From a virus (Duplodnaviria; Heunggongvirae; Uroviricota; Caudoviricetes): a stretch of DNA of 64,000 nt. The notes under the pieces were generated by a model that did no database searches, had not been told where the DNA came from, and worked only from the letters and a program-made list of their open reading frames with translations. Where the stretch lies: positions 5,543 to 69,542 of the IMG/VR virus record IMGVR_UViG_3300034105_001678. The stretch is one strand, 5' to 3'. Below, one piece after another: positions 9,490-53,874 of the stretch (position 1 is its first letter; every line of letters begins with the position of its first letter). Both the position numbers and the translations under genes were made by a program.

Positions 9490-10035
9490 ATGGGACTAGA
9501 TATGTATTTGTCGAAAAAAACTTATGTTAAACAATGGTCACACATTGAACCAGAGAAACAATTTGAAGTAGAAGTTAAACGTGGTGGTGAACCTTACACC
9601 GACATCAAATCCGAACGAGTGTCATACGTGACCGAAGGTGTTGGGTATTGGAGAAAGTTCAACGCTTTACACAACTGGTTTGTGGAGAATTGTCAGGATG
9701 GTTTGGATGAGTGTCAAGAAAGTTATGTAGACCGAACCAAGTTAGAGGAGTTAGTTGTAACACTTCACGAGGTCAAGAACATTTTAGAGAACTCACCAAA
9801 GAAAAAGGTACAGGTTAAAAATGGTTGGTCAAATGGTGAGGACACCTTTGTTGAAATCGAAGTATCGGAAGATAGTGAGAAGTTAGATGAGTTGTTTCCA
9901 ACATCATCAGGGTTTTTCTTCGGGGGAACTGAATATGATGAGTATTACAAAGAACAAGTTGATGAAACAATCGAATTGATTACTGACTTGTTGAAAGATG
10001 AAACGGGTGAATACTACTACCAAGCTTCTTGGTAA
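9490..10035 (+). CDS. hypothetical protein
   Basis: Preceded by the CGGGGACAGGTTACTGAACA UTR element. Confidence 0.45.
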   Translation: MGLDMYLSKKTYVKQWSHIEPEKQFEVEVKRGGEPYTDIKSERVSYVTEGVGYWRKFNALHNWFVENCQDGLDECQESYVDRTKLEELVVTLHEVKNILENSPKKKVQVKNGWSNGEDTFVEIEVSEDSEKLDELFPTSSGFFFGGTEYDEYYKEQVDETIELITDLLKDETGEYYYQASW

Positions 10036-13669: not shown

Positions 13670-13679
13670 TTGGGTTAGG

Positions 13680-13760
13680 GTTTGGGGCCAAACATTATTC
13701 GTATTACAATGGTTGTTTAGACACCTATCATTTTAGTCAATAATGTTTGGCCCTTATCTA
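13680..13760. repeat. Perfect palindrome GGGCCAAACATTATT...AATAATGTTTGGCCC flanking about 45 nt
   Basis: Arms at 13686-13700 and 13738-13752. Confidence 0.7.
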
Positions 13761-14030
13761 TTGCGGTCCTCCCTCCGGTCGGACCTTCATCCCGTATTCT
13801 TGCCAAACAAGTTCACCCTGTATGACATCCCGTAAGTTGTTTGGCAAAAGTGATGTATGACTTGGCGGGGGATCTGTCGATCCCCCTTCAGGTAGATACT
13901 AGAACCTGGTCTATAGGGATATAATTATAAACCCATTATACTGGTGTATGACAAGGGGGATGTATGACATCGGGATGAAGGGAGGGAGACGAGAGTCTCC
14001 CGACCGTATAACCATTATACTATTATATGA
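13760..14030. other. Candidate replication origin / strand-switch control region
   Basis: Four TGTATGAC(A/T) iterons at 13819, 13854, 13945 and 13961. IR TTGCCAAACAA / TTGTTTGGCAA at 13796-13848. Hairpin GGGGGATCTGTCGATCCCCC at 13869-13888. Long-range IR at 13771-13794 versus 13971-14006. Non-coding over about 650 bp, between the plus and minus gene blocks. Confidence 0.45.
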
Positions 14031-14349
14031 ACGGGTATAATCTGTATATATGTATGTATAAAAGTATACCCTTTATAGAAAAATATAAAAAACAGATCAC
14101 GATTGACGCAGGGGTCAATCCCCATAGAGTTGCAACCAAAGTGGGAGAAGGTGGTAAATTGTGGGTGATATATACTAGAACCCAAAAACCGGACACAAAG
14201 TCACTTATTTATGTATATAAAAAGATCCCGACAAAATGTCACTAAAAAAACCCCTGTTTACGGGTATAAAAACGGGAATAAATTAGGGGTCATTTACATC
14301 CCGTTATAATCGGTCGGAGAACGATGTTCTCCTCCCTCAAAGATAGTAA

Positions 14350-14640
14350 TTACTTCTTCTGTTTAAACAACTTTGTCCATATCTGACTACGGGGATTACC
14401 TAACTTCATCCCTATATACTTTCCAATAACTGAACCCAATATATAGAATACTACTATGGTAAAGTTTCCCTTTAGTAAATCATCTATGGCATAATAGGTA
14501 GACACAAGAGCCACCAAATTTAACCATACTGAATTTAAGAGTAGAGCCCCTATCTTATTCTGGTAGGTATACTTTATCTCTAACACCTTAAAGATGTTAA
14601 ATAAAGTTTGTGATGTTAATACTATAAGTTCTTTATACAT
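14350..14640 (-). CDS. small polytopic membrane protein (possibly GtrA-like)
   Basis: 96 aa with about 3 TM helices, immediately downstream of the GT2 gene. Similarity to GtrA is not demonstrable by eye. Confidence 0.35.
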   Translation of the reverse strand: MYKELIVLTSQTLFNIFKVLEIKYTYQNKIGALLLNSVWLNLVALVSTYYAIDDLLKGNFTIVVFYILGSVIGKYIGMKLGNPRSQIWTKLFKQKK

Positions 14641-14670
14641 TTATCTTTTTTTTGTAACCTGTCAAATATA

Positions 14671-15387
14671 CTACCCCCAATATCCGTGGGAATTTTTGAA
14701 AAATTCTGGGTTGTTTCTGTTTAGATATGACTTAATCATTATCTTGAACATCCATAATACTCCCTTGTTCTTGAACCTACGGGATGATGTATAGGTTCCC
14801 TCTATCTTGACTACCTTAAACTCTTTTGATGTCACCTTTTGTGATATCGAATAATCCTCAGCAAATAGGTGTTCAGGATTGTATCCTCCTACTGTCCAGT
14901 ATGCTCCTGAGTTCCATAATTGAAATCCTCCCACTGCAAAGGGTGTCCCCATATACAAGGATAAGGTCTGGAACATATCAAATACTCTGAATACCCATCT
15001 ATAAGGTTTATCTGTATAGAATGGAACTGTTACCAAATCTTTCCTGTGAGATAAACACTCTTCTATTATCTTTGGGTTGGTTAATAATATATCTGCATCC
15101 AAGAATAACATATACGGAGTTGTTACCAGGTTACTTCCGTTTAATCTTCCTTCTGATGGATATCCTCCTTTGATTACTTCTATATCCAATATATGTTTGA
15201 AGTCTACTTGTAATCTCTTTATCCATATCAATGAATCATTATCGTCTGATATATCTGCTATGATTAATCTTACCCCTGAGATGTGTTTTTGTCTTGATAT
15301 GTATTGAATACAATTATATAAGATTATTCCCTCATTTTTGGATGGGATTACTATTGTTAACCTCTTACGCAATGACCGTATATTCAT
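14671..15387 (-). CDS. glycosyltransferase family 2 (GtrB / Dpm1-like)
   Basis: N-terminal IVIPSKNEG and the LFLDADIL DxD motif are typical of GT-A / GT2. Confidence 0.6.
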   Translation of the reverse strand: MNIRSLRKRLTIVIPSKNEGIILYNCIQYISRQKHISGVRLIIADISDDNDSLIWIKRLQVDFKHILDIEVIKGGYPSEGRLNGSNLVTTPYMLFLDADILLTNPKIIEECLSHRKDLVTVPFYTDKPYRWVFRVFDMFQTLSLYMGTPFAVGGFQLWNSGAYWTVGGYNPEHLFAEDYSISQKVTSKEFKVVKIEGTYTSSRRFKNKGVLWMFKIMIKSYLNRNNPEFFKNSHGYWG

Positions 15388-16081
15388 CGTTATTATATAT
15401 TATATAACTGTTATTCTCAATCCAATCCCCGCAGTTCAGATATCTGATGCCATCTATTTGTTTGTCGTCAGGATGATGTATATGTCCACACATTACCGTT
15501 GTACAGTTATGTTTCATCCCCTGTCTCACTATCTCCTGCTCGAATGATGTCATAAACTTCACCGCCTCCTTCACCTTATCCTTTAGATATTTGGATAATG
15601 ATCTCTTATACCCCCACGATTTGAGTCTCCTGTCAATGGATATCGCCATATCATATCCGATACTACCAAGAACTCCGAGCCACTTCAACTTAACCACACC
15701 ATCATATAAATCCCCGTGGGTAATGTAGGTATTGTTATAGACATACTCATTATGAACCTCTATGTTCCCGAAAGATAACTCAAGGTAATCCCTCATAAAC
15801 TCATCGTGGTTCCCAGGAATATAAATTACCTTTGTCCCGTTCTTTGAATACGATAGAATCTTCCTCAGCACATTCGTATGTGACTGCGGCCACCTGAACT
15901 TCCTCTTTAGTAACCACCCGTCAATGATGTCCCCAACCAAAAACAAATACTCTGGTTGATACATCTTCAGTACCTCCAACACCTCTGTTGCATTGGAACC
16001 CTTTGATCCCAAATGAACGTCCGAAATAAATAATGCTTGTATCTTCATCCCCATAAATATCCTTCCCATCTCACGGGACAC
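15365..16081 (-). CDS. calcineurin-like metallophosphoesterase, LpxH/YbbF family
   Basis: LFISDVHLG, LVGDIIDGW, IPGNHDE and GHIHH motifs with spacing like UDP-2,3-diacylglucosamine hydrolase LpxH. Confidence 0.55.
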   Translation of the reverse strand: MSREMGRIFMGMKIQALFISDVHLGSKGSNATEVLEVLKMYQPEYLFLVGDIIDGWLLKRKFRWPQSHTNVLRKILSYSKNGTKVIYIPGNHDEFMRDYLELSFGNIEVHNEYVYNNTYITHGDLYDGVVKLKWLGVLGSIGYDMAISIDRRLKSWGYKRSLSKYLKDKVKEAVKFMTSFEQEIVRQGMKHNCTTVMCGHIHHPDDKQIDGIRYLNCGDWIENNSYIIYNNDEYTVIA

Positions 16082-16099
16082 ATTAATTTTCTATTATTC

Positions 16100-16351
16100 T
16101 TATTTGAATAACACCCTTATCATATCCTTTGCACGATTTAAACAGTCAGTCCAATTGTTCCCCTGGGATATGACATTCCCCGTCTCTAGGTCAAAGATAT
16201 ACCATATGTCACCTATCTTACACTTACCCCCTTTAATCTCAGGTACATTCGGTGCAGGTCTAGTCGTGTTAATGGTTATCCTTTTGGAATCTACCTTTAT
16301 CCAATTCCCATTTAAAAAAAGATTCCTTTTCTTGTTAGATTGTCCAGTCAT
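16100..16351 (-). CDS. hypothetical protein
   Basis: ORF. Confidence 0.35.
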   Translation of the reverse strand: MTGQSNKKRNLFLNGNWIKVDSKRITINTTRPAPNVPEIKGGKCKIGDIWYIFDLETGNVISQGNNWTDCLNRAKDMIRVLFK

Positions 16352-17178
16352 ATATTAGTTTCATAATGTTTCTTAGATGGATATAGTTCTAAAAATTTTT
16401 GTGTTGTGATTAATTCGTTTCTTTTTGATTTGTGATGAAAAACTCTATAATGATTCACCACACCATCAACCTCAATAAAAAAGTTTAATGGAGTTTCATT
16501 TTCAACTAAACACCCATAACAATGAATTTCGTTATTAGAATTGTGTTGAATTCTTATGTGGTGGTGCCAATCTTCAACCTCTAATTTGTCTTTTTTGTTA
16601 TGTGGATTCAACATTTTATTATTATATATCATATACCCATCAACAGTAAACCATCTTTTTGGTTTTGTCTTTGTTGGTTTTTGATTCAAACTTATTGGGT
16701 TAAATTCTTTCAAATATCTACTCAAAATGTACATATCAAATATACCACCATTTCTACTTCTAAATTTTTCCAAATAATCATAATCATTTTCTGAGAATAA
16801 TTCGTGTTCACTTAATCCATATTTCGTTATCATATGTTTTTTTAATGGTGAATCAATAAACTGATAAAATTTCCCATCCCATTCTATACCTTGCTGTCTT
16901 GTTTTTAAGTCCCACTTAAAGTGTTTCATATTATTACTAAGGGTATAATCATAATCCACAGGTATAAGATAAGGTGAAAATCTGTATCCCCAATGGTACC
17001 CATCTCCTTTCCAAGTCCTATATGCAATGTACATCGAATTAGGGGTGTTTAAATATTTAATCGGTAGAAAATCAATAAATTCTGCCAATTTTTTTTCGTC
17101 AGCAAGTAGAGTTTTAGGAATTAATAATGCACCTAACCCCGCAAACAATGATGTTTTTAAAAATGACCTCCTATCCAT
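16348..17178 (-). CDS. exported protein with twin-arginine (Tat) signal peptide
   Basis: MDRRSFLKTSLFAGLGALLIP is a textbook Tat motif (RRxFLK) plus an h-region. The mature part is His/Tyr/Trp-rich and of unknown function. Confidence 0.5.
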   Translation of the reverse strand: MDRRSFLKTSLFAGLGALLIPKTLLADEKKLAEFIDFLPIKYLNTPNSMYIAYRTWKGDGYHWGYRFSPYLIPVDYDYTLSNNMKHFKWDLKTRQQGIEWDGKFYQFIDSPLKKHMITKYGLSEHELFSENDYDYLEKFRSRNGGIFDMYILSRYLKEFNPISLNQKPTKTKPKRWFTVDGYMIYNNKMLNPHNKKDKLEVEDWHHHIRIQHNSNNEIHCYGCLVENETPLNFFIEVDGVVNHYRVFHHKSKRNELITTQKFLELYPSKKHYETNI

Positions 17179-17719: not shown

Positions 17720-18088
17720 TTAAATTGTTTCATTGTCTCTTATTACTCCTCTGAATATTAGTGGTCTATCCTTTGGCATATCATCAAAATTATCTTCGTT
17801 GTAATGTATCATATCACTTATGTTTGTGTTGTCCACAAATTCATATACAAATATAATCTTATCTCTACTCATTTCCATAAAATGATTGTATGAATTAATA
17901 TATCTATTTGTAACTGTCACCGTCATTGTCTTTAATTCCTCGGTATAAAAATTTCCATCCCATCTATTTTCCATATAGAATATTACACCCACAGGTCTAT
18001 ACATCCATTGTAATTGGCCAAGGTAATCACTCCTCAAATACCATTTTCTCTTTATATTCTTTTGGAAGAACTTGAATGGTCTAATCAT
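17720..18088 (-). CDS. MIKPFKFF-family protein 1 (MIRPFKFFQKN...)
   Basis: Shared N-terminal decapeptide. The body is unrelated to other family members. Confidence 0.55.
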   Translation of the reverse strand: MIRPFKFFQKNIKRKWYLRSDYLGQLQWMYRPVGVIFYMENRWDGNFYTEELKTMTVTVTNRYINSYNHFMEMSRDKIIFVYEFVDNTNISDMIHYNEDNFDDMPKDRPLIFRGVIRDNETI

Positions 18089-18524
18089 TTCTAAATGTTA
18101 AAGTTGTGTCAGCATTGGTATGGAATACTTCTCCTACCATATCTTCATTCCATTTACATTGTTCATAAATAATATGATTAATCTCCGCTTCAACATCAAT
18201 ACTCATCCAAGCACCCGCTGCAAGTTCTTGTATATATCTTCTTATTGTTACACTATTTGTATGAACCGCAACCTCATCAATCTTCCTTCTAATATCATAA
18301 TCACTATAAGAATTATATTTGTCTCTATATAATTTAGTCATAATGATAATCAACATATTTTTAACTCTATCATTATCCATTAAATTATTATCCTGAATAT
18401 ATTTGTATGTGATGTCTAATACACCAATCAATAATGGAACATTTGTTGCATCATCTAACAAACCGGTTAGTTGCCAATTTATTTTTGTTTCGTTTGATCT
18501 AAAAAATTTGAAATCCTTTATCAT
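18081..18524 (-). CDS. MIKPFKFF-family protein 2 (MIKDFKFFRSN...)
   Basis: Shared N-terminal motif. Overlaps its neighbour by 8 nt. Confidence 0.55.
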   Translation of the reverse strand: MIKDFKFFRSNETKINWQLTGLLDDATNVPLLIGVLDITYKYIQDNNLMDNDRVKNMLIIIMTKLYRDKYNSYSDYDIRRKIDEVAVHTNSVTIRRYIQELAAGAWMSIDVEAEINHIIYEQCKWNEDMVGEVFHTNADTTLTFRND

Positions 18525-18751
18525 TATACATTATTATTTCGTTCATACATCGTAACTCCCTCTCTCCATAATTCATACTCATATTCTTCCACAAGTGGAT
18601 TGTATGGTGACTCTAACGAACGACTATTACGGTAACAATCAAATGCATCATAATATCCTTTTGTGTATATGTTTCTATCCTCAGGACTTAAACCACTATA
18701 TCTATTGGGTATAGGAACTTGTTTCTTTGCGAGGAACTTAAATGTTTTCAT
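18524..18751 (-). CDS. MIKPFKFF-family protein 3 (MKTFKFLAKK...)
   Basis: Shared N-terminal motif. Confidence 0.5.
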   Translation of the reverse strand: MKTFKFLAKKQVPIPNRYSGLSPEDRNIYTKGYYDAFDCYRNSRSLESPYNPLVEEYEYELWREGVTMYERNNNV

Positions 18752-18930
18752 TATTTTTTTATTTTAAAGAAATTAACTATTCTATCTGTGAAAGGTAGTT
18801 TATTCTTCTTTAACATCTCTTGATATTCCACCACTTCAATCGCCTCACTCATTAAGATTGGGGTTCCTCTTCTTACCTTATCAGACAATTCTTCAAGACG
18901 TTTGTCTGTGAGTGTTTTTCTAAATTTCAT
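18751..18930 (-). CDS. hypothetical small protein (MKFRKTLTD...)
   Basis: Track ORF 18751..19014 trimmed to the ATG at 18930. This avoids an 83-nt overlap with the upstream gene. Confidence 0.35.
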   Translation of the reverse strand: MKFRKTLTDKRLEELSDKVRRGTPILMSEAIEVVEYQEMLKKNKLPFTDRIVNFFKIKK

Positions 18931-18931
18931 A

Positions 18932-19162
18932 TTATTTAATTTTGTTTTCAATATTTTTATTATGGAGTTCAACAAAATACTCTGCAATATGTTTATGTAA
19001 CTCCCCAGACCCAACTATCCAATATTCATCTTGACCCCCGTCATCAAAAAGTATGGGTTCAATAGGTTTAATCGTTCTACACCAACATTTTTCTCCTTGA
19101 TTACAAGTTCCTATTTGCCATTTTACGGTTAAAGATTTTTCTTCCGCTTCTTCAAATTTCAT
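18932..19162 (-). CDS. hypothetical Cys-containing small protein
   Basis: Contains C..C..CWC. Could bind metal. Confidence 0.4.
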   Translation of the reverse strand: MKFEEAEEKSLTVKWQIGTCNQGEKCWCRTIKPIEPILFDDGGQDEYWIVGSGELHKHIAEYFVELHNKNIENKIK

Positions 19163-19172
19163 ATTATTTGTT

Positions 19173-19688
19173 TTATATTATATCAGGAAAATTATACATA
19201 TAGTGGTCTGGATAAATTGTTTGTCCTTCCACTGTGTTCCCTTCTTCAATACTTCTAAACAACATAACTTTATATGGCTGCGGCAAAATAGAATCGTATC
19301 TTTCTTCGGACACATCAAAGAATACAAATTCATCTGTGTTATAGAATTCAGGATATGTTTCATCTATTGGTGGGTTAGGATTTACATTACGATAATTCAT
19401 TTCTACTCTATCACTCCACCTCAGAAACCCTCTATTCCACAACTCACACCATTCAGCAGCCATACGATCATCGACAATACCTTCATATGGATTGATGGTG
19501 ATATTATTACGTCCAGCTTCCCACCCCTCAATGTATGTTTCAATACGTATTAAGGTTCCACCTCTCAAATCCTGTGGTAACATATTCCAATGACGATTCG
19601 ATATTCCATATGGTGGATCTATTCGTACTGGTAATGTATACTCATCACTATATGTGTATCCGTTAAGTAGTTTAAATGGTTTTATCAT
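19173..19688 (-). CDS. MIKPFKFF-family protein 4 (MIKPFKLLNGY...)
   Basis: Shared N-terminal motif. Confidence 0.55.
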   Translation of the reverse strand: MIKPFKLLNGYTYSDEYTLPVRIDPPYGISNRHWNMLPQDLRGGTLIRIETYIEGWEAGRNNITINPYEGIVDDRMAAEWCELWNRGFLRWSDRVEMNYRNVNPNPPIDETYPEFYNTDEFVFFDVSEERYDSILPQPYKVMLFRSIEEGNTVEGQTIYPDHYMYNFPDII

Positions 19689-20023
19689 ACGTATCTTATT
19701 GTTGATGTTCCATCTAAATATTCATTTAAAAAATCTTCCATAAATCCAATTACCTGTTCATTACATATATAATTTCTATATCTATATTTTAATTCATCTA
19801 TCATTGCTCTAACGGATAATTCATCCATATCACCATCGTAAATTAATTCTAATTGTGTATTTTGAGCTCCTACATAAAAACCAAGATGTTGTGTAGGACC
19901 AGAAAAAAAATATGTTGGTGGTTCGTTTGAAGTTATTACCTCAACAGGTACACCTCCAACCAATAGGTCGTAGTGATATAATCTTTTTGGTCTCCCCTCA
20001 AAAAATTTAAATTGGTTTACCAT
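19685..20023 (-). CDS. MIKPFKFF-family protein 5 (MVNQFKFFEGRP...)
   Basis: Shared N-terminal motif. Confidence 0.5.
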   Translation of the reverse strand: MVNQFKFFEGRPKRLYHYDLLVGGVPVEVITSNEPPTYFFSGPTQHLGFYVGAQNTQLELIYDGDMDELSVRAMIDELKYRYRNYICNEQVIGFMEDFLNEYLDGTSTIRYV

Positions 20024-20270
20024 CTTCTTCCCACTCTTTAATGTTTCTTAATATTGTTTCCGTTAGTTCTTTTGTTTTATCATCCAATAGTTTCATCATC
20101 TCAATATCTTTTGGGTTTGTTTCATCCCACGCAGCTTCTTCTCTCGCACCTGATTCGTGAATAACATTATTAATCATAAACCAACAGGACATTTTAATTC
20201 TTGTTTCCAACGATGTTTCTTTTAACAATTCACTTATAGTGTTTGATAAAATCTTTCTTGCCTTTGCCAT
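20007..20270 (-). CDS. hypothetical acidic protein
   Basis: ORF. Confidence 0.4.
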   Translation of the reverse strand: MAKARKILSNTISELLKETSLETRIKMSCWFMINNVIHESGAREEAAWDETNPKDIEMMKLLDDKTKELTETILRNIKEWEEDGKPI

Positions 20271-20271
20271 A

Positions 20272-20709
20272 TTATCCTCTTCTTTGTAAATTAATTAATG
20301 GGACACTTACTCTATAATTTTCAGTATTCCCGTCTCTTGTAATTAAATAAACTATGTGAAACATTCCACCAATATTAATTCCACTTACAATCTTTAATAT
20401 TATTACCTCACCATTTCTTTCTTCTATAGAAGTTTCATATCCTCTCCAATTTATATTTCGTCTCATTTTAGTTCTTACACGACTGATAACAAATCCATCA
20501 TAAAAAGTTTGTGGTATTGGAACTTGTACATAACCTGCTGGTATATATTCTGGACTTCTCATTATTTGTTGAACTCTATCTGATAACTCACTCAATCTCA
20601 CTCCACCATACAAGTCGGGATTAATTGTTCTATCATAATATCCACCTCGTGGTGTTGATACAACTATGGCACTATTTGTCCCCCGTAAAAATTTAAATGG
20701 TTTTATCAT
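20272..20709 (-). CDS. MIKPFKFF-family protein 6 (MIKPFKFLRGTN...)
   Basis: Shared N-terminal motif. Confidence 0.55.
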   Translation of the reverse strand: MIKPFKFLRGTNSAIVVSTPRGGYYDRTINPDLYGGVRLSELSDRVQQIMRSPEYIPAGYVQVPIPQTFYDGFVISRVRTKMRRNINWRGYETSIEERNGEVIILKIVSGINIGGMFHIVYLITRDGNTENYRVSVPLINLQRRG

Positions 20710-20909
20710 CTTCTTTTAAATTTAACTTGATGTAATAACATCATTGGTACGAATACCCAAGCAACTAAAGCCGCGGGAACGGTCTTAGCAATCACTTCGA
20801 GTAAAGTGAATTCATCTTTGTCTTCATATCTTCTCTCCGATGGATGTTTGATCATCCAATATACACCATATATTGTTGTTAGTATCCAATAGATTAATAA
20901 TATTACCAT
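20706..20909 (-). CDS. small membrane protein (2 TM)
   Basis: Hydrophobic segments with a basic C-terminus. Confidence 0.4.
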   Translation of the reverse strand: MVILLIYWILTTIYGVYWMIKHPSERRYEDKDEFTLLEVIAKTVPAALVAWVFVPMMLLHQVKFKRR

Positions 20910-20921
20910 ACGTTTAAAGTT

Positions 20922-21218
20922 TTATTCTACCATATAATATCTCGACCGTTTATATTCTTTTCTATTCTGATATGAGTCCTTCCAGTTCTGAATAATTTGT
21001 TCCGCTTGATATTTTTGTTGAAATGGATATGATCCCGATTCCCATACTTTGAAAGGTAATGGAAAATAGTTAGTATTATACCACACTTTTTGTTGTGGTA
21101 AATAATACGTTGTACCTTCGTAAGTCCACGTTTGGATACGATACTTTGGTTTTCCTTCTAGTGTTGTTACTCCCAACAACATTAGTACTATAATAAGTCT
21201 TTTCATTATTAGATACAA
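20922..21218 (-). CDS. small secreted protein (signal peptide)
   Basis: N-terminal MKRLIIVLMLLGVTTLEG. Confidence 0.4.
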   Translation of the reverse strand: MYLIMKRLIIVLMLLGVTTLEGKPKYRIQTWTYEGTTYYLPQQKVWYNTNYFPLPFKVWESGSYPFQQKYQAEQIIQNWKDSYQNRKEYKRSRYYMVE

Positions 21219-21250
21219 TATAAATAATATTTCTTATAATATAAAATTAT

Positions 21251-21820
21251 TTACCATATACTTAAAATTTTAGATAGAATGAGAATTACAACAAATGTTA
21301 TGATGGTTGCAATAACAGTTATAGGTAGCGCTTGGTCACTATACAATGATAACTTTTGAAAGAACATCTTAACCCTCGTCCACCACTTCGGATTAACAGT
21401 TGTTACTCTTGTTGCTTGGAACAATCTAATTTGATTTCTTAGTCTTTCACTTTCGGCCAACATATCTCTGTTCAAATTATATTGTTCTTGTGTGATGGTA
21501 CCGTTAAGTATTTGTGTACGATTGTTATCTTCAGTTACTATATCTCGTCTAATGAGCGCTCTTTCTAATGTAAACCTTTCGATTTCATCGGTAGCATTGT
21601 GAAATCTATCATATAATTCACGGTCGGTATGGTATAATCTTCTTCTACCCATATAACCTTCAGGTGTATCGGCGTTGATATATGTTCTTGGATGATGGTA
21701 ATTGATTACCTCTTGAACAAATCTTTGACCGTCATTTAATGATGCGGTTGCTCTAGTCTCTCCTTCATAGAGATCTAATGTTCCCTTAACTTCCTTCTGG
21801 AAAAATTTGAATGGTTTCAT
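21251..21820 (-). CDS. MIKPFKFF-family protein 7 (MKPFKFFQKEVKG...) with C-terminal TM
   Basis: Shared N-terminal motif. C-terminal hydrophobic helix. Confidence 0.55.
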   Translation of the reverse strand: MKPFKFFQKEVKGTLDLYEGETRATASLNDGQRFVQEVINYHHPRTYINADTPEGYMGRRRLYHTDRELYDRFHNATDEIERFTLERALIRRDIVTEDNNRTQILNGTITQEQYNLNRDMLAESERLRNQIRLFQATRVTTVNPKWWTRVKMFFQKLSLYSDQALPITVIATIITFVVILILSKILSIW

Positions 21821-21829
21821 ATTATTTTT

Positions 21830-21964
21830 TTATTCGTCGTCACCTCCGTTTTCATAACATCTCTCACACATACCATTAATTGACATTCCACTACCAATTG
21901 AACCGCAGTCTCTTCCACATATTTTGCAGAAACCCGCCCTAAAAAAATTGATTACCTTTTTCAT
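21830..21964 (-). CDS. 44-aa zinc-ribbon protein (not in the ORF track)
   Basis: MKKVINFFRAGFCKICGRDCGS...CERCYENGGDDE has two CxxC pairs. Confidence 0.4.
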   Translation of the reverse strand: MKKVINFFRAGFCKICGRDCGSIGSGMSINGMCERCYENGGDDE

Positions 21965-22102
21965 ATTATTTTTTATATTTTCTTAATTTACATTTTTCAT
22001 CCCATATCAAATATCTTATTTGTAAACTCTTAAAGAAACCTTTGGTTTCAGTTAATAAAGTTTGATAATAAATGATTTTCTTTTGGATTAGTCTTTTTGC
22101 CA

Positions 22103-22324
22103 TTATCTTCGGTTTAGTTGTCTACCCGCAGCAGACGGTGTGGTTAAGTAATAATCATAGTGCATCACACAATGTCTTTGATTTTCTTGAATAACATAAT
22201 TGAAATGATTATACTTCATTTCTGTTACGGTACAATAATAACCACGGAAAATAAATGTTGAACCAACTTGTAGTTGACATCTATTTTTATATGGGTTTCG
22301 TTGAAAAAATTTAAATGGTTGCAT
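22103..22324 (-). CDS. MIKPFKFF-family protein 8 (MQPFKFFQRNPYK...)
   Basis: Shared N-terminal motif. Confidence 0.5.
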   Translation of the reverse strand: MQPFKFFQRNPYKNRCQLQVGSTFIFRGYYCTVTEMKYNHFNYVIQENQRHCVMHYDYYLTTPSAAGRQLNRR

Positions 22325-32952: not shown

Positions 32953-33609
32953 TTATCCAACAATTCCTTTCATATCATCTGTGTGATGATCTAACGGTCC
33001 TAACTCTGAACCGATTACAACTTTTTTCATCGGATTAATAATCTCACGATGTAAATCATAAGGTCTAAATTCTGGATGACCATCCATACCTACATCCATT
33101 CTTCTACCATTGGTAATCTTTTGTGCGTGTGGTAAGTGACAATGTCCGTGTAGCATTATTCTACCTTTACGTAAACCATTCCAAGATGATATTGGATAGT
33201 GCATACACTCCAACGTTTCACCCATATAGTTTACTTGTAGGAACCATTGAACACTATTGAATAAACTTTGACAGTTCTCTCTGTTCCTATCAATGTGATG
33301 ATCGTGGTTACCTAAGATTAAATGAATCTCTTGACATATGATTCTATCTCTTAACAATTGAATGTTTTCAAATCCACCGAATGACCAATCCCCAAAATGA
33401 ATCAACACATCTTCTTGACCAACAACCTCATTGATGTTGTTAACAATGGTATCATTCATCTTATCTAACGTTGGGAAATCCCTTGTTTGATTTTCCGGAA
33501 TATCTCCATTAGCTAATCTCCAATTAGTTGTTCCACGACATATGTTTCCGTGACTGAAATGGGTGTCTCCCGTTACCCAAACTTTTCTACTATCTTCTAT
33601 CTTTATCAT
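32953..33609 (-). CDS. calcineurin-like metallophosphoesterase
   Basis: GDTHFSHGN, GDWSFGG, GNHDHH and HGHCH motifs. Confidence 0.65.
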   Translation of the reverse strand: MIKIEDSRKVWVTGDTHFSHGNICRGTTNWRLANGDIPENQTRDFPTLDKMNDTIVNNINEVVGQEDVLIHFGDWSFGGFENIQLLRDRIICQEIHLILGNHDHHIDRNRENCQSLFNSVQWFLQVNYMGETLECMHYPISSWNGLRKGRIMLHGHCHLPHAQKITNGRRMDVGMDGHPEFRPYDLHREIINPMKKVVIGSELGPLDHHTDDMKGIVG

Positions 33610-35953: not shown

Positions 35954-37510
35954 TTATGCCATTGTAGATGAAGATGATATCATATTAGCAACTTTGGCAA
36001 CTTTGGGTCCACCTTGAGCAATTAGACTGTTACCACTATTTGATCTTCTATCTATTACAATTTGTAATAACGACTTAGGGTCTTTATTACCAGATGCAAC
36101 CGCTTCGTTAATTGTTCTTGCAAATTTTTGGAACCATCCCTCACCATTCCAAGTTGCGTATCCAAAATTAAACGTTAAAGCTGCATCTTTTGATATAATA
36201 TCTGCAGCTTCAGGTGACAAATGTGATTTACTAAATTTAATAAAGAATGGTTTCATAATGTCACCAGCCAATTTTCTTAATTTTCTATCCAACGACGGAT
36301 TATCTTTCAACATATAACCGTGTTTCCATTTACTTCTAGCATCTTCGGCATCAATTAAAGCCCAAAATTCCTGACCCGCAGGTCCAGTGGCTTCAGTACC
36401 TCCCGCCTTTCTATCCATACCAAACATTGTTTCACCAGATGCACCAAATCTACCATCTTTTACTCTACCATCTTGTAACATATCTGGGTGATAATATCCA
36501 CCCTCTAAATTATCTATGATAAGATTAACTATACCCTCCCAATCGTTAACTGTGACGTTACCACCACTACCGTTAGCTTTATTGATATATGATGAAAGTT
36601 CTTCTGATTTAACACCTCTTTCTTTAAGAAGTTCGATTAATTTATTTAACATTGCAGGAGTCGCTACTTTCAAATCTGTACTACCCGCACCAGCCTTACC
36701 TCCAGTTGCATTTGTTAATCCAGAAGCTAAATCACTTAAATTACCTGAAGATACACCTACGTGAACGTGAGATGGAATACCATCTATTTGCATTATCTTA
36801 CCAATAAGGTCACCTTCTTTAACTGAATCACCAACACTTACCGATGAGTCTATATGTGTATAGAAAATATCTGGTTTACCGTCGTTACTTTTTACAGACA
36901 CTTGGTCTCCGTATATTTTTTTAACTCCACTTTTAATTAATCCACCACTTGCCTTTCTAACTTTATTTACAACACCACTAGTGATTGAGTAAACCTCAGT
37001 TCCAACTGGACCTGTAACATCCCAAGCGTTTCCACTTTGCCAATCAGATGCACTATGTGTACCTTGACCAGGTTTACCTATTAATCCACCACCTTGTGAA
37101 ACCAACTTAGACGCCTCATTGATTGATGTTTTACCATCATTTAATTTCTCTTGTGTGAATTTAGCAACCGCAGCACCAGTCTCAGGACCAAAAAGACCAT
37201 CAACACCATACCTTGGTAATTCATAACCTAATAAAATTAAACCTATTTGCATAGACTCAACTTCTTTTTGAAATTGATATGAACCTTTTTCTTGTTGGGT
37301 TATCCCGTTACCGCTTGCGGCAGTTTCAAGAGTTTTATAAAACGCCTCAACGTCGGGAGTAATAGCGTCAGCCTTCTTATCGTCGTGTTTATTGGTCTTA
37401 ATACCCAAACCACCCATAATTTTATCCCAAAGTTCCCCCTCATTAACTACTTTTTTACCATAGTTAAGTCGGTGCATTCTTTCTAACTGTTCTATTAAAT
37501 TCTTCTTCAT
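35954..37510 (-). CDS. multidomain peptidoglycan hydrolase: PG-binding domain + M23 (LytM) peptidase + GH108-like lysozyme domain
   Basis: PG_binding_1-like LQIGLILLGYELPRYGVDGLFGPETGAAVAKF. M23 motifs HSASDWQSG...HVHVG. C-terminal EGGYYHPDM...GETMFGMD resembles GH108. Confidence 0.65.
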   Translation of the reverse strand: MKKNLIEQLERMHRLNYGKKVVNEGELWDKIMGGLGIKTNKHDDKKADAITPDVEAFYKTLETAASGNGITQQEKGSYQFQKEVESMQIGLILLGYELPRYGVDGLFGPETGAAVAKFTQEKLNDGKTSINEASKLVSQGGGLIGKPGQGTHSASDWQSGNAWDVTGPVGTEVYSITSGVVNKVRKASGGLIKSGVKKIYGDQVSVKSNDGKPDIFYTHIDSSVSVGDSVKEGDLIGKIMQIDGIPSHVHVGVSSGNLSDLASGLTNATGGKAGAGSTDLKVATPAMLNKLIELLKERGVKSEELSSYINKANGSGGNVTVNDWEGIVNLIIDNLEGGYYHPDMLQDGRVKDGRFGASGETMFGMDRKAGGTEATGPAGQEFWALIDAEDARSKWKHGYMLKDNPSLDRKLRKLAGDIMKPFFIKFSKSHLSPEAADIISKDAALTFNFGYATWNGEGWFQKFARTINEAVASGNKDPKSLLQIVIDRRSNSGNSLIAQGGPKVAKVANMISSSSTMA

Positions 37511-40309: not shown

Positions 40310-40885
40310 TTAAATTTTATTTATTTTAAATAACTCTTCGGTTAAATCAATATATGGTTGTGTTTCGGGATTATAATAGCCAACCATTTTGTCTATTTTT
40401 TCCTTATTGTCGTATGTTGTAGTTTTATTATGTTGTTCAACTCCCCAAATTGGTTCTGGTAATTCTCTAACATTAAACATAACCACTCGTTCTGGTGTTG
40501 CGCAAACATAAAAAACATCTTTGTCAGGTGATATAATCATATCGTCCCATTTTTTCTTTTCAACTAAGAAAGTATCATAATCTTTCTTTCTTCCTTTAGT
40601 TTCAATTCCACATTTTTCTAAAATACTACGCAAATCGATAGGAGAATATTTGTTATGTATATTTAAATCTATCAAATCAGGATACAATTTTTTCAATTCA
40701 AAATAAATACTTGTTTCATCCTGACAAATGTAAGTTAGATATCTTTCTCTTCTTTTACTTAAAAGTAGTGGTATACAATTAATAATTGTATCTAAACAAT
40801 TTTTATGTTCTTGTTCTTTTTCTAATTGTTCCGCTATCCGTTTTTCAATTTCTTCTACTGACAACTCTTCAATATCTCTCGACAT
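40310..40885 (-). CDS. hypothetical protein
   Basis: ORF. Confidence 0.45.
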   Translation of the reverse strand: MSRDIEELSVEEIEKRIAEQLEKEQEHKNCLDTIINCIPLLLSKRRERYLTYICQDETSIYFELKKLYPDLIDLNIHNKYSPIDLRSILEKCGIETKGRKKDYDTFLVEKKKWDDMIISPDKDVFYVCATPERVVMFNVRELPEPIWGVEQHNKTTTYDNKEKIDKMVGYYNPETQPYIDLTEELFKINKI

Positions 40886-41469
40886 AAATCTTCTGGTATT
40901 TTACTTCTTTCATAAGCGTTAGATCTACCTTGTGTTCCTGTTTTAGAACCTCTAGGTGCTGCAACGTGACAAGGTGAACCATTCTTACACATTGGTCTTG
41001 GAACCCATACATCACTATTAGTCCATATGTCGGTTGGTTTCATTCTTTCATCACCATACTGACAATATGTAACAGTGTTTCGTTTGAACTTATCCATAAA
41101 TGGCATCTTACGAAGAACTCCTCTTGGGTTTTCAATGAACCAATATGTTGGATTGAAATGTTCAATCACTTCGATAGTTTTCTTAACTAATTCAATACCA
41201 AGTCGTGCGGTATCTGTCTTAGGAATGTACGCACCCTTACCTCCAGTCCAATGGTGACCTAAAGCGGCAACACTGAATCCTGTACAAGGTGGTGATGCCC
41301 AAATTACATCAGGTTGAAATGGAACTTTGGTTACATCAAAGTCTAAGATACTAACGGCATAATGTATTCCGTCAAATGGTGTTAGGTCGGATGAAAATAC
41401 TTCCATACCTAACTCTTCGGCAATCTTTCCAACGGAACGACTACCCGCAAATAATTCTAATACTTTCAT
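40855..41469 (-). CDS. DNA (cytosine-5)-methyltransferase
   Basis: Motif I LELFAGSRS, motif IV ASPPCTGFS, motif VI ENPRG. Compact 204 aa. Confidence 0.8.
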   Translation of the reverse strand: MKVLELFAGSRSVGKIAEELGMEVFSSDLTPFDGIHYAVSILDFDVTKVPFQPDVIWASPPCTGFSVAALGHHWTGGKGAYIPKTDTARLGIELVKKTIEVIEHFNPTYWFIENPRGVLRKMPFMDKFKRNTVTYCQYGDERMKPTDIWTNSDVWVPRPMCKNGSPCHVAAPRGSKTGTQGRSNAYERSKIPEDLCREILKSCQ

Positions 41470-44265: not shown

Positions 44266-45234
44266 TTAATATACTATTTTTTCTTGAGATTTCAAAATAT
44301 CATCAACAATTTGTATCCTTTGACCAATCCATCTCATTACATTTACTGTCATTGAGTTACCAATAATACCTTTAACATTTGAATATGATGGTTTTTTACC
44401 GTCAATTTCAAAGTCAAGATAATCATCAGGGAACCCCTGAAGTCTAAGTAATTCTTTCTCGGTAAATTCTCGGATACCTCCCTCATCAACCCAATAGTTT
44501 GATGTTGAATCCTTACCAAACCCATCGGTTAATGTTTGAGAATATGATTTAGTTATCGTACCTGCGATTCTAATTTGTCCGAGAAGACTTTTGGTACGGT
44601 CATCCCTCTCTTTAAGAGTCTCTTTTTTAAATTTCTTAAAACATCCTTCGTCAAATAATATTGCCGCAGGGACTCTCCAGTCGGTTCCACGATATCCAAC
44701 AATGTAGACTCTTTTGCGTCGTTGGGGTACTCCAAAATATTGGGAGTCGAAAACCCTATAAGCGATTGACCGTTTGGTACCTTGAACAATACCTCCCCCT
44801 CTGTTGATGTTGTCCGGTCTAAAATCGACACCTGTGAAAGAGGAGATGATGTCACACAACCCTTCTTTGTGTTCTTTATCAAAAACACCGTCGACGTTTT
44901 CCCATACGTTGTACTTGGGAGATTTTGACTCAAGAATTCCTCCATATTTAATGGCGAGTTGAGCACGTAAGTCATCCATTCCTTTTCTGAGTCCTGAATT
45001 TGACCAAGCTTGGCACGGTGTGCCTCCGACGAACACGTCGAAATCTGTTTTTTTGAATTTTTCATCGTCTAGTAAGTTTAACATATTTGTATAAAAAGGA
45101 ACATCAGGGTAATGATGTTTAAGGACTTTCTGTGGGAAACTTGCAAAGTCACATAGACCCGCACATTCCCAACCAAGTGGCTCCCAAGCGACAGTCGCCG
45201 CCTCCATACCACTACATACTGAAAAATACTTCAT
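44266..45234 (-). CDS. DNA (cytosine-5)-methyltransferase
   Basis: Motif I FSVCSGMEAA, motif IV GGTPCQAWSNSG, motif VI VWENVDGV. C-terminal target recognition domain. Confidence 0.8.
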   Translation of the reverse strand: MKYFSVCSGMEAATVAWEPLGWECAGLCDFASFPQKVLKHHYPDVPFYTNMLNLLDDEKFKKTDFDVFVGGTPCQAWSNSGLRKGMDDLRAQLAIKYGGILESKSPKYNVWENVDGVFDKEHKEGLCDIISSFTGVDFRPDNINRGGGIVQGTKRSIAYRVFDSQYFGVPQRRKRVYIVGYRGTDWRVPAAILFDEGCFKKFKKETLKERDDRTKSLLGQIRIAGTITKSYSQTLTDGFGKDSTSNYWVDEGGIREFTEKELLRLQGFPDDYLDFEIDGKKPSYSNVKGIIGNSMTVNVMRWIGQRIQIVDDILKSQEKIVY

Positions 45235-49737: not shown

Positions 49738-50859
49738 TTAATTACTTAATGGTGCTTTTATTGACGGGTGATATTGGTAATTTTCTAATATTACATCTTT
49801 TTCTCCGAATGAAAATATACCATCCATAATGTGTACAGTTGGTAAATTAAATGGTTCTCTGTTTATTTGTTCTTTAGCTTGTTCAATATGGTTCTTATAT
49901 AAATGAACATCACCTAAATTACCTATTAATTCATCTGGTACCATACTCATTTCATCCGCAATCATCATTAATAATAAACCATATGACGCAATGTTAAATG
50001 GTAAACCTAAAAATGTATCAACAGATCTTTGATTCCACATTAAGGATATTGCTCGTTTAGGTATATTGTGTGATTGTAACTCTTCACTCAATCCCCCACC
50101 AAATGGAACTATATCATCAACCATTGATTTAAACCTTTCCTCACCAACTTTCTTCTTTAATAAGTCCCACATCTCTTCCCCAGTTAACTTTCTAGTGTAG
50201 ACTTGAAAACCATAATGACAAGGCGGTAAAACCATTTGGTCTAACTCACCCACGTTCCAAGCACTTACCATCAATCTTCTACTATCTGGATTTGTTTTAA
50301 GTTCATCAATTAGATTTTGAATTTGGTCTAAATAAATTGGGTCACCGTTATCGGATATGTCTTGTAATCCACCCCATTTTCTCCATTGTTTACCATAAAT
50401 TGGTCCGAGTTCTCCCCATTCCTTAGCAAACTCATCATCAATTTTGATAAGATTAATAAATTCTTCTTGAGTTAATGGTGTTAACATATCCGAATTACTG
50501 AACAGTATTTCAATGTGTGGTTGGATACCCATAATATCTCCACATTTATATCCATCAATAATCTCATTAATCTTTTTAGAATAGTTTTTATAAGCATCAC
50601 CATTCCAAATGCTACATCCATTCATCACTAGATACTTGATGTTAGTACTACCACTTAAAAACCAAATCAACTCGGTTACCATAGTTTTCCAAGCCATTTT
50701 CTTAGTTGTTAATAATGGAAACCCCTGAGCCATTCTATGACGTATTTGTCTACCAAAAACTGAAATGGTTCCAGTTCCAGTTCTATCCGTTTTAACAACT
50801 CCATTATCCAAAATATCTTGTAGTAAATCTTGATACTTCTTATCAATCGTATTCATCAT
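49738..50859 (-). CDS. thyA: thymidylate synthase (ThyA) with two insertions
   Basis: DRTGTGT, GFPLLTTKK, SAWNVGELDQMVLPPCHYGFQVY, LGLPFNIASY. About 100 aa longer than E. coli ThyA. Start trimmed to MMNTIDKK. Confidence 0.85.
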   Translation of the reverse strand: MMNTIDKKYQDLLQDILDNGVVKTDRTGTGTISVFGRQIRHRMAQGFPLLTTKKMAWKTMVTELIWFLSGSTNIKYLVMNGCSIWNGDAYKNYSKKINEIIDGYKCGDIMGIQPHIEILFSNSDMLTPLTQEEFINLIKIDDEFAKEWGELGPIYGKQWRKWGGLQDISDNGDPIYLDQIQNLIDELKTNPDSRRLMVSAWNVGELDQMVLPPCHYGFQVYTRKLTGEEMWDLLKKKVGEERFKSMVDDIVPFGGGLSEELQSHNIPKRAISLMWNQRSVDTFLGLPFNIASYGLLLMMIADEMSMVPDELIGNLGDVHLYKNHIEQAKEQINREPFNLPTVHIMDGIFSFGEKDVILENYQYHPSIKAPLSN

Positions 50860-51065
50860 ATTAATTTTTTTCTTCTTCAATTTCATATCCTTCTTGGATT
50901 TGTACTCCCATCATATAGGTTAACCACCTGATTGTTAACCCCCAACAAGGTGACGTTATACCCGTTTCAAGGAACTCCGTTTTGTTATAAAAAAAAACTA
51001 CCGTTGGTATTATGAACCAATGGTGCCTTTTATTATAAATAAAAAAGTCTTTGTAGTAAATTTTT

Positions 51066-52518: not shown

Positions 52519-53874
52519 ATGAAGAAAAAAATATTACTTTTATCTGATGATTTAAGAATGACATCAGGTATTGCTACTATGTCCAAAGAAATCGTATTAG
52601 GTACCGTCCACAAATACGATTGGGTTCAGTTGGGTGCATCGATTAGTCACCCTGAAATTGGGAAGATTGTTGATGTAAATGACGACATAAGAAAACGCAC
52701 CGGAGTTGAAGATGCGAATTTAAAGATTATACCATACAATGGTTATGGGGATATCAATATGATTCGTAGATTGTTAGACGAAGAAAAACCAGATGCCATT
52801 CTTCATTTTACGGACCCACACTATTGGCAATGGTTATACGATAACGAACACGAGATAAGACAGCGTGTACCAATTTTATATTGGCACATTTGGGATGACT
52901 TACCAGATCCACAATACAATAGAGACTTCTATGAAAGTTGTGATTGGGTTGGTGGTATTTCAAAACAAACATACGGTATTATTCATCGTGTTAGTAAAAG
53001 AACCGATAAGGTTACATTTAAACCTTTGGAAGATTGGCAGATAAGTTACGTTCCTCACGGTATTAATCCAGATTTATTTAAACCGTTAGATACTATCAGT
53101 GAAGAAGTAACTAAATTTATTCACGGAGAAAAGAAATATGACTTTGTTCTATTTTACAACAGTAGAAACATTAGAAGGAAACAACCAAGTGACGTAATTT
53201 ATTCATTTAAATTATTCTGTGATAGATTACCAAAAGAAAAGGCTGAAAAATGTTTATTGCTAATGCACACATCTCCGGTTGATGAGAATGGTACAGACTT
53301 ACCTGCAGTTATTAATGACCTTTGTCCTTATGATGTTAGATTCACGGGTATTAAATTAGAACAAGATAAGCTAAATGAATTCTATAACATTGTTGATTGT
53401 ACAATTAACATTGCAAACAATGAAGGATTTGGTTTAACGACGGCAGAATCTTTAATGTCGGGAACACCAATCATTGTAAATGTTACTGGTGGGTTACAGG
53501 ATCAATGTGGATTTGATTTTAGTGCCGATGATTATATTAGTGTCGGTACTTTACATAGTAAGGAAGAAAGAAGTCAAACAGCTCACGGTGAATGGGTTAT
53601 TCCTGTTTGGCCATCGGCAATTAACTTAAATGGTTCAGTACCAACACCATACATTTTTGATGATAGGGTTAATGATATTGAAGTTGCTGATGCTATTATG
53701 AAAATGTATAAGTTTAGTAAAAAGAAGAGAAAAGAAAAAGGATTAAAAGGTAGAGAGTTTATGATTAACAATCTATCAAATAAAATAATGTGTGATAAAC
53801 TGATTGAAGGTATTGATACCACAATGGAAAAATTCACACCAAGAAAAAGATTCGACACATATAAAGTAATATGA
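52519..53874 (+). CDS. glycosyltransferase, GT-B fold (GT1/GT4-like)
   Basis: C-terminal EGFGLTTAESLMSGTPIIVNVTGGLQDQ is a GT4-type donor-binding motif. Confidence 0.65.
   Translation: MKKKILLLSDDLRMTSGIATMSKEIVLGTVHKYDWVQLGASISHPEIGKIVDVNDDIRKRTGVEDANLKIIPYNGYGDINMIRRLLDEEKPDAILHFTDPHYWQWLYDNEHEIRQRVPILYWHIWDDLPDPQYNRDFYESCDWVGGISKQTYGIIHRVSKRTDKVTFKPLEDWQISYVPHGINPDLFKPLDTISEEVTKFIHGEKKYDFVLFYNSRNIRRKQPSDVIYSFKLFCDRLPKEKAEKCLLLMHTSPVDENGTDLPAVINDLCPYDVRFTGIKLEQDKLNEFYNIVDCTINIANNEGFGLTTAESLMSGTPIIVNVTGGLQDQCGFDFSADDYISVGTLHSKEERSQTAHGEWVIPVWPSAINLNGSVPTPYIFDDRVNDIEVADAIMKMYKFSKKKRKEKGLKGREFMINNLSNKIMCDKLIEGIDTTMEKFTPRKRFDTYKVI

Follow-up and report, generated by a model that had tools for sequence, protein, structure and literature searches.

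Introduction

Under phosphate starvation, PlcP, a Mn-dependent phospholipase C of the metallophosphoesterase type, makes diacylglycerol and the glycosyltransferase Agt, encoded in the same operon, converts it to glucosyl- or glucuronosyl-diacylglycerol (PMC4796936, PMC8528852, PMC9239053). The partner of plcP varies between bacteria and can be a GT4 Agt, a Pgt-type enzyme or a UgtP-type enzyme (PMC4796936, PMC9239053), and LpxH has been used as the outgroup for PlcP (PMC9239053). Characterised PlcP-Agt examples are SMc00171 of S. meliloti, MED193_17359 of Phaeobacter, PB7211_983/960 of SAR11 and PA3219/PA3218 of P. aeruginosa. The gene paired with plcP encodes an enzyme that uses up diacylglycerol, either a glycosyltransferase or BtaAB, and the SAR11 PlcP restored DGTS synthesis in a Phaeobacter MED193 mutant lacking plcP. 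Another diacylglycerol glycosyltransferase, MG517 of Mycoplasma, is a GT2 enzyme without a transmembrane segment that binds the membrane via an amphipathic helix (PMC3849446, PMC6506492). Here we describe a 64,000-nucleotide (nt) stretch of phage DNA (the window; positions 5,543 to 69,542 of IMGVR_UViG_3300034105_001678, Caudoviricetes) in which a metallophosphoesterase gene (15365-16081, minus strand) overlaps a GT2 glycosyltransferase gene (14671-15387, minus strand). With a probability of roughly 0.55, the two genes are a phage counterpart of the lipid-renovation pathway that bacteria run with PlcP and a glycosyltransferase, by which phosphorus would be freed during infection; we infer both the enzyme activities and the acceptor of the GT2.

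The initial annotation of the region had proposed a different system, an envelope-modification cassette of four consecutive genes, namely a small membrane protein in the position of GtrA, a GtrB/Dpm1-like GT2, an LpxH-family phosphoesterase and a protein exported by the twin-arginine translocation (Tat) pathway. The name LpxH is widespread among the relatives: IMG and GenBank phage records give it to homologues of the phosphoesterase, and lpxH was counted under lipopolysaccharide (LPS) biosynthesis in the auxiliary metabolic gene table of a viral metatranscriptome from Lake Baikal (PMC9611531). A literature search, which was not exhaustive, returned no link of plcP with phage auxiliary genes and no description of a phage-encoded PlcP.

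Results

The phosphoesterase and GT2 genes are linked in related phages

The phosphoesterase gene runs at its 3′ end into the start of the GT2 gene; the overlap is 23 nt but shrinks to 8 nt if the GT2 start chosen by JGI is taken instead, and translation of the GT2 is probably coupled to that of the phosphoesterase. When read from a GTG codon the phosphoesterase has 238 amino acids (aa), but the ATG at 16054 (229 aa, MGMKIQ...) is the likelier start because metagenomic homologues are 227-230 aa long. A scan of IMG/VR with the GT2 alignment gave 80 loci with GT2 identities of 45-96%. A viral contig in IMG/VR carries a GT2 96% identical to that of the window, and related viral contigs reached 298-336 kb. 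The phosphoesterase gene adjoined the GT2 gene on the same strand in 79 of the 80 loci. The phosphoesterase came first in 27 loci and the GT2 in 52; in the latter order the two genes mostly overlapped or lay within about 100 bp of each other. The fact that adjacency was kept despite the change in order, and between copies as divergent as 37-43% for the phosphoesterase and 53-60% for the GT2, is strong evidence for functional coupling.

When all open reading frames (ORFs) of the 80 loci were clustered against one another, no further genuine gene family was present in more than 24 of them. In contigs with close homologues only the phosphoesterase-GT2 pair recurred, and the flanking genes differed even when the phosphoesterases were 95% identical. 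The cassette of four genes thus did not hold as a unit: only the phosphoesterase and the GT2 stay together, and the Tat-signal protein and an 83-aa ORF beside it occur in none of the 80 loci. In one further locus, L191 (2013-4910), a GT-B glycosyltransferase gene (PF13528) is followed by a 96-aa gene, a RimK-type ATP-grasp gene and a PlcP-like phosphoesterase gene. The GT-B enzyme stands in the place of the GT2, so the class of glycosyltransferase can be swapped while the theme persists. Both families are abundant, with more than 7,900 phosphoesterase proteins at E ≤ 1e-5 (84-96% identical among the 120 matches listed) and 1,147 GT2 proteins.

Two features of the surrounding DNA were seen in individual lineages. 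In L006 (4361-5737) and L007 (181-1557), a TnpB/Cas12f-like gene (OrfB_IS605) is inserted upstream of the module at a distance of a few kb; it is missing from the otherwise collinear, 305-kb contig L005. In the lineage in which the GT2 precedes the phosphoesterase (L122-L178), adjoining ORFs code for secreted proteins whose N-termini include MKKLLLLLLLLPTIVFSQ and MKKLLAIVGLLLTFGVSNAQ; we take these to resemble Bacteroidota-type signal peptides, which may hint at the host of that lineage.

The phosphoesterase resembles PlcP more closely than LpxH

The assignment of the phosphoesterase to the LpxH family was right about the superfamily and wrong about the specific family. Pfam Metallophos was matched (PF00149, E = 4.4e-13), LpxH gave the strongest sequence matches in NCBIfam and in the PDB (E = 3.5e-4 in the PDB), and LpxH was also the nearest solved fold (TM-score about 0.55). 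In an AlphaFold2 model (predicted local distance difference test, pLDDT, 70), residues 120-181 form a helical insertion (helices 120-146, 153-169 and 171-181) in a calcineurin core, and the top 24 fold matches of this model in a Foldseek comparison with the PDB were all LpxH, with identities of 17-21%. The enzyme is placed on an LpxH-like branch but is not LpxH itself, as judged by its motif GNHDE and by scores far under the cut-offs of the NCBIfam LpxH models, which were 46.1 bits for NF003743 (cut-off 134) and 37.4 bits for TIGR01854 (cut-off 190). E. coli LpxH gave 34.7 bits and 21% identity in BLASTP, and 19.6% identity in the alignment. LpxH alone has a catalytic-site histidine replaced by arginine (Arg80), and this holds in all species (Okada et al. 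2016, PMC5016852). The motif reads GNRD in E. coli and P. aeruginosa LpxH, GNHD[ED] in the phage copies of the phosphoesterase and GNHEA in phage S-SRM01.

Much closer relatives were found at bacterial plcP-agt loci. A Pseudomonas pseudonitroreducens protein whose gene immediately precedes that of an Agt homologue gave 203 bits, 45% identity and E = 3e-70 in BLASTP, and a Pelagibacteraceae protein from a metagenome-assembled genome (MAG), with an Agt-like glycosyltransferase encoded downstream, gave E = 9e-64. Identities to proteins from such loci in Pseudomonas, Bradyrhizobium and the Pelagibacteraceae MAG were 43-47%. A published search for PlcP used BLASTP E < 1e-40 to a characterised PlcP, and here values below this threshold were obtained against candidate orthologues. 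In the alignment, the motifs VGDI[IV]DGW, GNHDE, a YWSLS-type helix, CGHIHH and NCGDW were common to the phage and cellular proteins of this clade and absent from LpxH. In a neighbour-joining tree, both phage lineages fell together with the cellular plcP-locus proteins, as did the copies from Pelagibacter phage Mosig and from S-SRM01, and LpxH formed a long branch outside this group.

The metal-binding set of DxH, GD, GNH, the histidine of HGD and GHxH was complete. D12, H14, D42, N82, H83, H191 and H193 were invariant in 19 homologues and H113 was found in at least 90%, and the metal-binding motifs were kept in both phage lineages. Synonymous sites were saturated and pN was 0.05-0.16, which indicated strong purifying selection. 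Existing names were less informative. The PHROG labels were the generic "metallo-phosphoesterase", with a weak match to PHROG 7339 ("DNA repair exonuclease", E = 8e-7), and the source names of the cluster members were the automatic labels "LpxH" and "glycosyltransferase involved in cell wall biosynthesis" alone.

A scan of 185,579 species genomes gave 598 relatives of the phosphoesterase. The best 80 of these were 39-46% identical over the full length and came from Burkholderiales, Pseudomonas, Campylobacterales, Bradyrhizobium, Afipia, the Pelagibacteraceae MAG and others; alphaproteobacteria make lipid X with LpxI and are not known to use LpxH for it. At 33 of the 80 bacterial loci, an Agt-type group-1 (GT4-type) glycosyltransferase gene stood beside the homologue; in most cases both lay on one strand and the glycosyltransferase gene began about 80-100 bp downstream. 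The identity of the glycosyltransferase was confirmed by comparison with PDB sequences. Furthermore, four representatives of clusters formed at 50% identity were fusions of a GT4 and a Metallophos domain, in which the Metallophos part was 39-44% identical to the phage enzyme. These fusions are an independent link of the phosphoesterase clade to lipid glycosyltransferases. Taken together, motifs, tree and synteny make it highly probable that the phosphoesterase belongs to the PlcP clade rather than to LpxH.

The GT2 is predicted to be a soluble enzyme with a GT-A fold

The GT2 assignment was confirmed by a match to PF00535 (E = 9.5e-8) and by the DxD motif (D97-A-D99) and the pair E177-D178, which together with D45 and R203-R204 were invariant in 25 diverse homologues. 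All 25 matched PF00535 and 16 also matched PF13506 (GT21). The best NCBIfam model was TIGR04283 in every one of the 25, far under its cut-off, followed by MftF, HpnB and CruG, and the nearest models are named mostly for small-molecule or isoprenoid-lipid pathways, not polymers. The AlphaFold2 model (pLDDT 81) had a plain GT-A fold. No hydrophobic stretch of transmembrane length was present in the sequence (238 aa) or in the model, so the protein is without the GtrB/Dpm1 architecture that had been ascribed to it.

The acceptor-side variable region (residues 125-143) forms a strongly amphipathic aromatic helix, and the C-terminal 39 residues are aromatic-rich and contain eight lysine or arginine residues versus one aspartate or glutamate. 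The helix and the basic aromatic C-terminus would fit interfacial binding to the membrane. A dN/dS of about 0.16 indicated purifying selection. It is from the linkage to PlcP alone that we infer diacylglycerol as the acceptor.

A small membrane protein is an optional third component

The gene at 14350-14640 (minus strand) encodes a 96-aa protein with two hydrophobic segments, both predicted to be helices. It had no Pfam match at E up to 0.1 and no PHROG match. GtrA-family flippases have four transmembrane helices. A polytopic protein in the GtrA position, as proposed earlier, is thus not what the gene encodes, and its identification as GtrA was rejected on the number of helices and the lack of a GtrA match.

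Homologues of the 96-aa protein were found in 19 IMG/VR loci, 17 of them with 75-96% identity and two outliers with 60% and 47%. Synonymous sites were saturated and pN was about 0.1, so the high identity reflects constraint and not recent transfer. In 14 of the 19 loci the gene lay within 3 kb of the phosphoesterase gene, and in nine the coding regions overlapped at the phosphoesterase start. In the lineage with the GT2 first, it was positioned between the GT2 and phosphoesterase genes (L135, L150, L166, L168 and L173). Some loci (L189, L192 and L194) had both a 96-aa gene and a phosphoesterase gene but lacked any glycosyltransferase gene within 3 kb, and five had the 96-aa gene alone.

Two neighbouring genes lie outside the conserved module

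All four genes of the initial annotation were recovered on the minus strand at their positions, but they are not consecutive, as the 83-aa ORF (16100-16351) intervenes between the phosphoesterase and the Tat-signal protein (16348-17178, minus strand). The resulting five minus-strand ORFs (14350-17178) are packed tightly, and the last two overlap by 4 nt. The 276-aa Tat-signal protein has the predicted twin-arginine N-terminus, MDRRSFLKTSLFAGLGALL, consistent with the consensus, with RRSFLK and a hydrophobic stretch; the Pfam TAT_signal model (PF10518) gave 13.9 bits (E = 0.053, cut-off 22.7). It is an orphan: there was one homologous cluster at 90% among 5.8 billion proteins, neither viral contigs nor the 80 module loci contained a relative, and the PDB gave no sequence match. 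Its absence from the 80 loci places it outside the conserved cassette. The 83-aa ORF, also on the minus strand, had no family match in Pfam, PHROG or NCBIfam and was found only in the near-identical contigs L013 and L014. Both genes are lineage-specific passengers.

Other features of the window

The window looks like a piece of a large phage, with densely packed small ORFs, a ligase, a ThyA-like gene, C5 methylases, M23 and NlpC/P60 peptidases and GP88. A DNA similarity search with the 3.6-kb region gave no match in phage records, and tblastn against deposited phages gave none for the GT2 or for one large neighbouring ORF. No tRNAs were found in the window, Rfam had no match in the whole window or in its structured intergenic region, and scans for sigma-70 promoters and terminators remained at chance level.

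The structured region is a 666-nt non-coding stretch between convergent gene blocks (13670-14350), with a minimum free energy z-score of -4.9 versus shuffled sequences and a GC content above that of the rest of the window. It contains a perfect 15-nt inverted repeat (13685-13699 / 13739-13753) and, on the minus strand, four copies of TGTCATACA within 150 nt (13819-13969). On the other side of the module (17720-22324, minus strand), at least eight ORFs have an opening motif in common, M-x-x-(P)-F-K-F-F/L, and may represent a paralogous family or carry one N-terminal signal. In L011, an ORF next to the module (9655-9957) has this start too, and with it a shared ...TIRYV end.

Ten genes on the plus strand (52519-61743) form a sugar cluster, a sizeable glycan-building set for a phage that may be directed at the host surface, the virion or DNA and which includes two GT4-type and four or five GT2 enzymes, an NAD-dependent epimerase/dehydratase, an S-adenosylmethionine-dependent methyltransferase and a UDP-galactopyranose mutase (Glf). 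The window also encodes, at 32953-33609 (minus strand; PF00149, E = 2e-7), another calcineurin-like phosphoesterase that is unrelated to the one in the module. A thymidylate-synthase-like protein of 382 aa (49738-50886, minus strand; PHROG 160, E = 7e-111) spans only about 290 profile positions and thus seems to carry extra sequence. Together with a C5 cytosine methylase (44266-45234, minus strand) and a weaker methylase-like ORF (40855-41469, minus strand), it gives a hint of DNA base modification.

The initial annotation had also pointed to an Asp/Asn beta-hydroxylase homologue, from the family that includes LpxO, at 62263-62871. This minus-strand ORF matched PF05118 with 47 bits, lies 45 kb from the phosphoesterase/GT2 locus and overlaps a DUF401 membrane protein gene (62826-63830, minus strand). 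Beyond the general PF05118 domain, nothing tied the ORF to LpxO in particular, although no comparison aimed at LpxO was made. The Asp/Arg beta-hydroxylase domain is a core gene of pelagimyophages (PMC7029224), and Mosig has a gene of this family near its PlcP-like gene.

Discussion

In the proposed pathway, the phosphoesterase, a putative Mn-dependent phospholipase C of the PlcP type, would cut the phosphorylated head group off host phosphatidylethanolamine, phosphatidylglycerol and phosphatidylcholine, and diacylglycerol would stay in the membrane. The GT2 would then move a sugar from a nucleotide sugar onto diacylglycerol, a step suggested by the strict gene linkage, so that a phosphorus-free glycolipid is formed and the membrane remains intact. 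The released phospho-head groups could enter the host phosphorus pool and feed phage nucleic acid synthesis, and the gain would matter to phages with contigs as large as those related to the window. By our own reasoning, a 300-kb double-stranded genome contains 6x10^5 phosphorus atoms, so membrane phospholipid could be a meaningful reserve in a small host cell. The 96-aa protein may, speculatively, tether the two soluble enzymes to the membrane or aid them there. In Mosig, the homologue adjoins a gene annotated as a phosphate ABC transporter, which we take to be pstS, and this fits the phosphate theme. A role at the host envelope, as first proposed, is retained in a different form: these are probably envelope-lipid genes, and the editing of lipid A or O-antigen by a Gtr-like and LpxH set is not.

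Several observations weigh against this pathway. The PlcP placement was made by comparison with candidate orthologues defined by synteny and not with SMc00171, MED193_17359 (EAQ46983), PB7211_983 and PA3219 themselves. The phage enzyme falls short of cellular PlcP in length and shows small deletions within its helical insertion, and the AlphaFold2 model is of moderate quality (pLDDT 70). The PDB fold matches of the GT2 are generic GT-A enzymes (TarP, WrtF, GtrB and K4CP), and the nearest sequence model, TIGR04283, is far under its cut-off. Neither tblastn nor a hidden Markov model built from the phage alignment found a homologue of the phage GT2 beside any of 80 cellular PlcP-like genes. Phages Mosig and S-SRM01 carry the phosphoesterase without a GT2, so the enzyme can function alone. 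Pho box matches in the window numbered two versus 5.7 expected, with an enterobacterial consensus that may not be that of the host, and no other phosphate-acquisition gene was recognised among the approximately 40 window ORFs scanned. The timing of phage gene expression may take the place of Pho control.

The alternative that survives best keeps the PlcP-type phosphoesterase but gives the GT2 another acceptor, such as polyprenyl phosphate, a hopanoid- or carotenoid-like lipid or the released head group, and the result would be a change of the cell surface, for example for superinfection exclusion. The nearest models of the GT2 (TIGR04283, MftF, HpnB and CruG) are mostly those of small-molecule and isoprenoid-lipid enzymes, GtrB and DPMS, which are polyprenyl-phosphate enzymes, are among its fold matches, and lipid remodelling has been shown to alter phage attachment (PMC9938194). 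We nevertheless consider another acceptor unlikely, because a common metabolite is the simplest reason for an adjacency that holds in either gene order, and diacylglycerol is the sole product of PlcP that stays in the membrane. The known bacterial partners of PlcP are, moreover, diacylglycerol glycosyltransferases of several folds.

Less probable still is that the phosphoesterase degrades membrane phospholipid mainly for lysis or host shut-off, with the GT2 linked incidentally or serving to detoxify diacylglycerol. The lone phosphoesterases of Mosig and S-SRM01 would be in keeping with such a role, as would the loci with the 96-aa gene and a phosphoesterase but no nearby glycosyltransferase. 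It is at odds with the pairing in 79 of the 80 GT2 loci and with L191, where a different glycosyltransferase substitutes, and the module is not beside the lysis-type genes of the window (M23 peptidase, 35954-37510; NlpC/P60, 48838-49317).

The function envisaged by the initial annotation, namely the editing of lipid A or LPS by an LpxH-type UDP-2,3-diacylglucosamine hydrolase, a GtrB/GtrA-like pair and a Tat-exported enzyme, now appears very improbable. It could draw on LpxH as the best NCBIfam and PDB sequence match and the nearest solved fold, on the LpxH labels in IMG and on GtrB among the fold matches of the GT2. The phosphoesterase, however, has GNHDE in place of the LpxH-specific GNRD arginine, scores well under both LpxH equivalog cut-offs, and is 21% identical to E. 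coli LpxH versus 45% to a plcP-locus protein, with relatives in the alphaproteobacteria Bradyrhizobium, Afipia and Pelagibacteraceae. No GtrA-, GtrB- or GtrC-type feature was found: the small protein had no GtrA Pfam match, the GT2 lacked transmembrane helices and a GtrC was not seen. The Tat-signal protein and the 83-aa ORF are missing from all 80 related loci.

The least credible option, an Mre11/SbcD-like nuclease or phosphatase acting on nucleic acid with a DNA glycosyltransferase, could appeal to the weak PHROG 7339 match (E = 8e-7) and to the ThyA-like and C5-methylase genes in the window, but fold and sequence place the phosphoesterase with LpxH and PlcP, with a helical insertion of the lipid-binding type and Mre11 matches 1000-fold weaker, and fusions and synteny tie its clade, PlcP rather than LpxH, to lipid glycosyltransferases. 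A nucleic-acid-processing clade, which the initial annotation had named as grounds for its own refutation, was not the outcome; the clade acts on lipid but is not the one expected.

If the phage genes do encode a PlcP-glycosyltransferase pathway, phages would strip phosphorus from the host membrane while a glycolipid keeps the membrane intact, which goes beyond the import of phosphate (pstS, phoA). Such a function would be of a new kind among those of phage auxiliary metabolic genes and would add a new route to the cycling of phosphorus in aquatic systems. The LpxH labels on phage homologues are a recurring annotation error. The swapping of the glycosyltransferase partner (a GT2 here, a GT-B enzyme in L191 and a GT4 in bacteria) shows modular evolution around PlcP. 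The chemistry and the PlcP family are already known from bacteria; carriage by phages, the non-orthologous replacement of the glycosyltransferase, the small membrane partner and the high metagenomic abundance of the pair appear to be new. More tentatively, and with somewhat less than even confidence, we suggest a widespread, phage-specific form of the pathway, with its own PlcP, a GT2 in place of the GT4 Agt and the 96-aa protein as a dedicated partner, that supplies membrane phosphorus for very large genomes, in which case the many "viral lpxH" genes counted under LPS biosynthesis in aquatic viromes would really be phosphorus-scavenging lipid genes.

Comparison with known systems

The closest known system is the bacterial PlcP-Agt pair. 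The phage phosphoesterase falls in the same clade and has motifs and metal-binding residues in common with it, the pairing with a glycosyltransferase is operon-like in both, and the predicted chemistry, from phospholipid to diacylglycerol to glycolipid, is the same. The differences are that the module is encoded by a phage, that the partner is a GT2 with a GT-A fold and not a GT4 Agt with a GT-B fold, and that both gene orders occur. The phage enzyme has 229 aa versus 250-309 aa in the cellular ORFs examined, lacks the C-terminal tail and has small deletions in the insertion. In addition, the 96-aa membrane protein is often attached, and no Pho box was detected.

LpxH shares with the phage enzyme a calcineurin-like core and a helical insertion at the same position, between HGD and GH(x)H, which PlcP has too, and the two are kin at the level of the superfamily. 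The phage enzyme differs from LpxH by a histidine at the position of Arg80, an identity of about 20%, scores under the NCBIfam cut-offs, and cellular relatives that occur in alphaproteobacteria and in operons with diacylglycerol glycosyltransferases.

With MG517 the phage GT2 shares a GT-A fold and the catalytic tetrad, D45, D97, D99 and E177-D178 in the phage protein versus D40, D93, D95 and E193-D194 in MG517, which is generic to inverting GT2 enzymes. Both are without a transmembrane helix and have a basic aromatic C-terminal region, a likeness judged from described features. The cyanobacterial MgdA and the GT21 enzyme Pgt offer further comparisons among diacylglycerol glycosyltransferases of the GT2 family; the phage GT2 is much shorter than either.

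Like the phage GtrABC cassettes for O-antigen glucosylation, the locus has a phage-borne GT2 beside a small membrane protein. The small protein, however, lacks a GtrA domain and has two helices rather than four, there is no GtrC, and the conserved partner is a phosphoesterase. The GtrB chains among the fold matches have about 306-316 residues, whereas the phage GT2 has 238 aa and no C-terminal transmembrane helices, and the match is limited to a TM-score of 0.55 and 16-18% identity.

Finally, the proposed benefit of the module, relief of phosphorus limitation, is the same as that of the phosphate genes of marine phages (pstS, phoH and phoA). In contrast to these genes, the module would act on membrane lipid and not on uptake or on the hydrolysis of esters outside the membrane.

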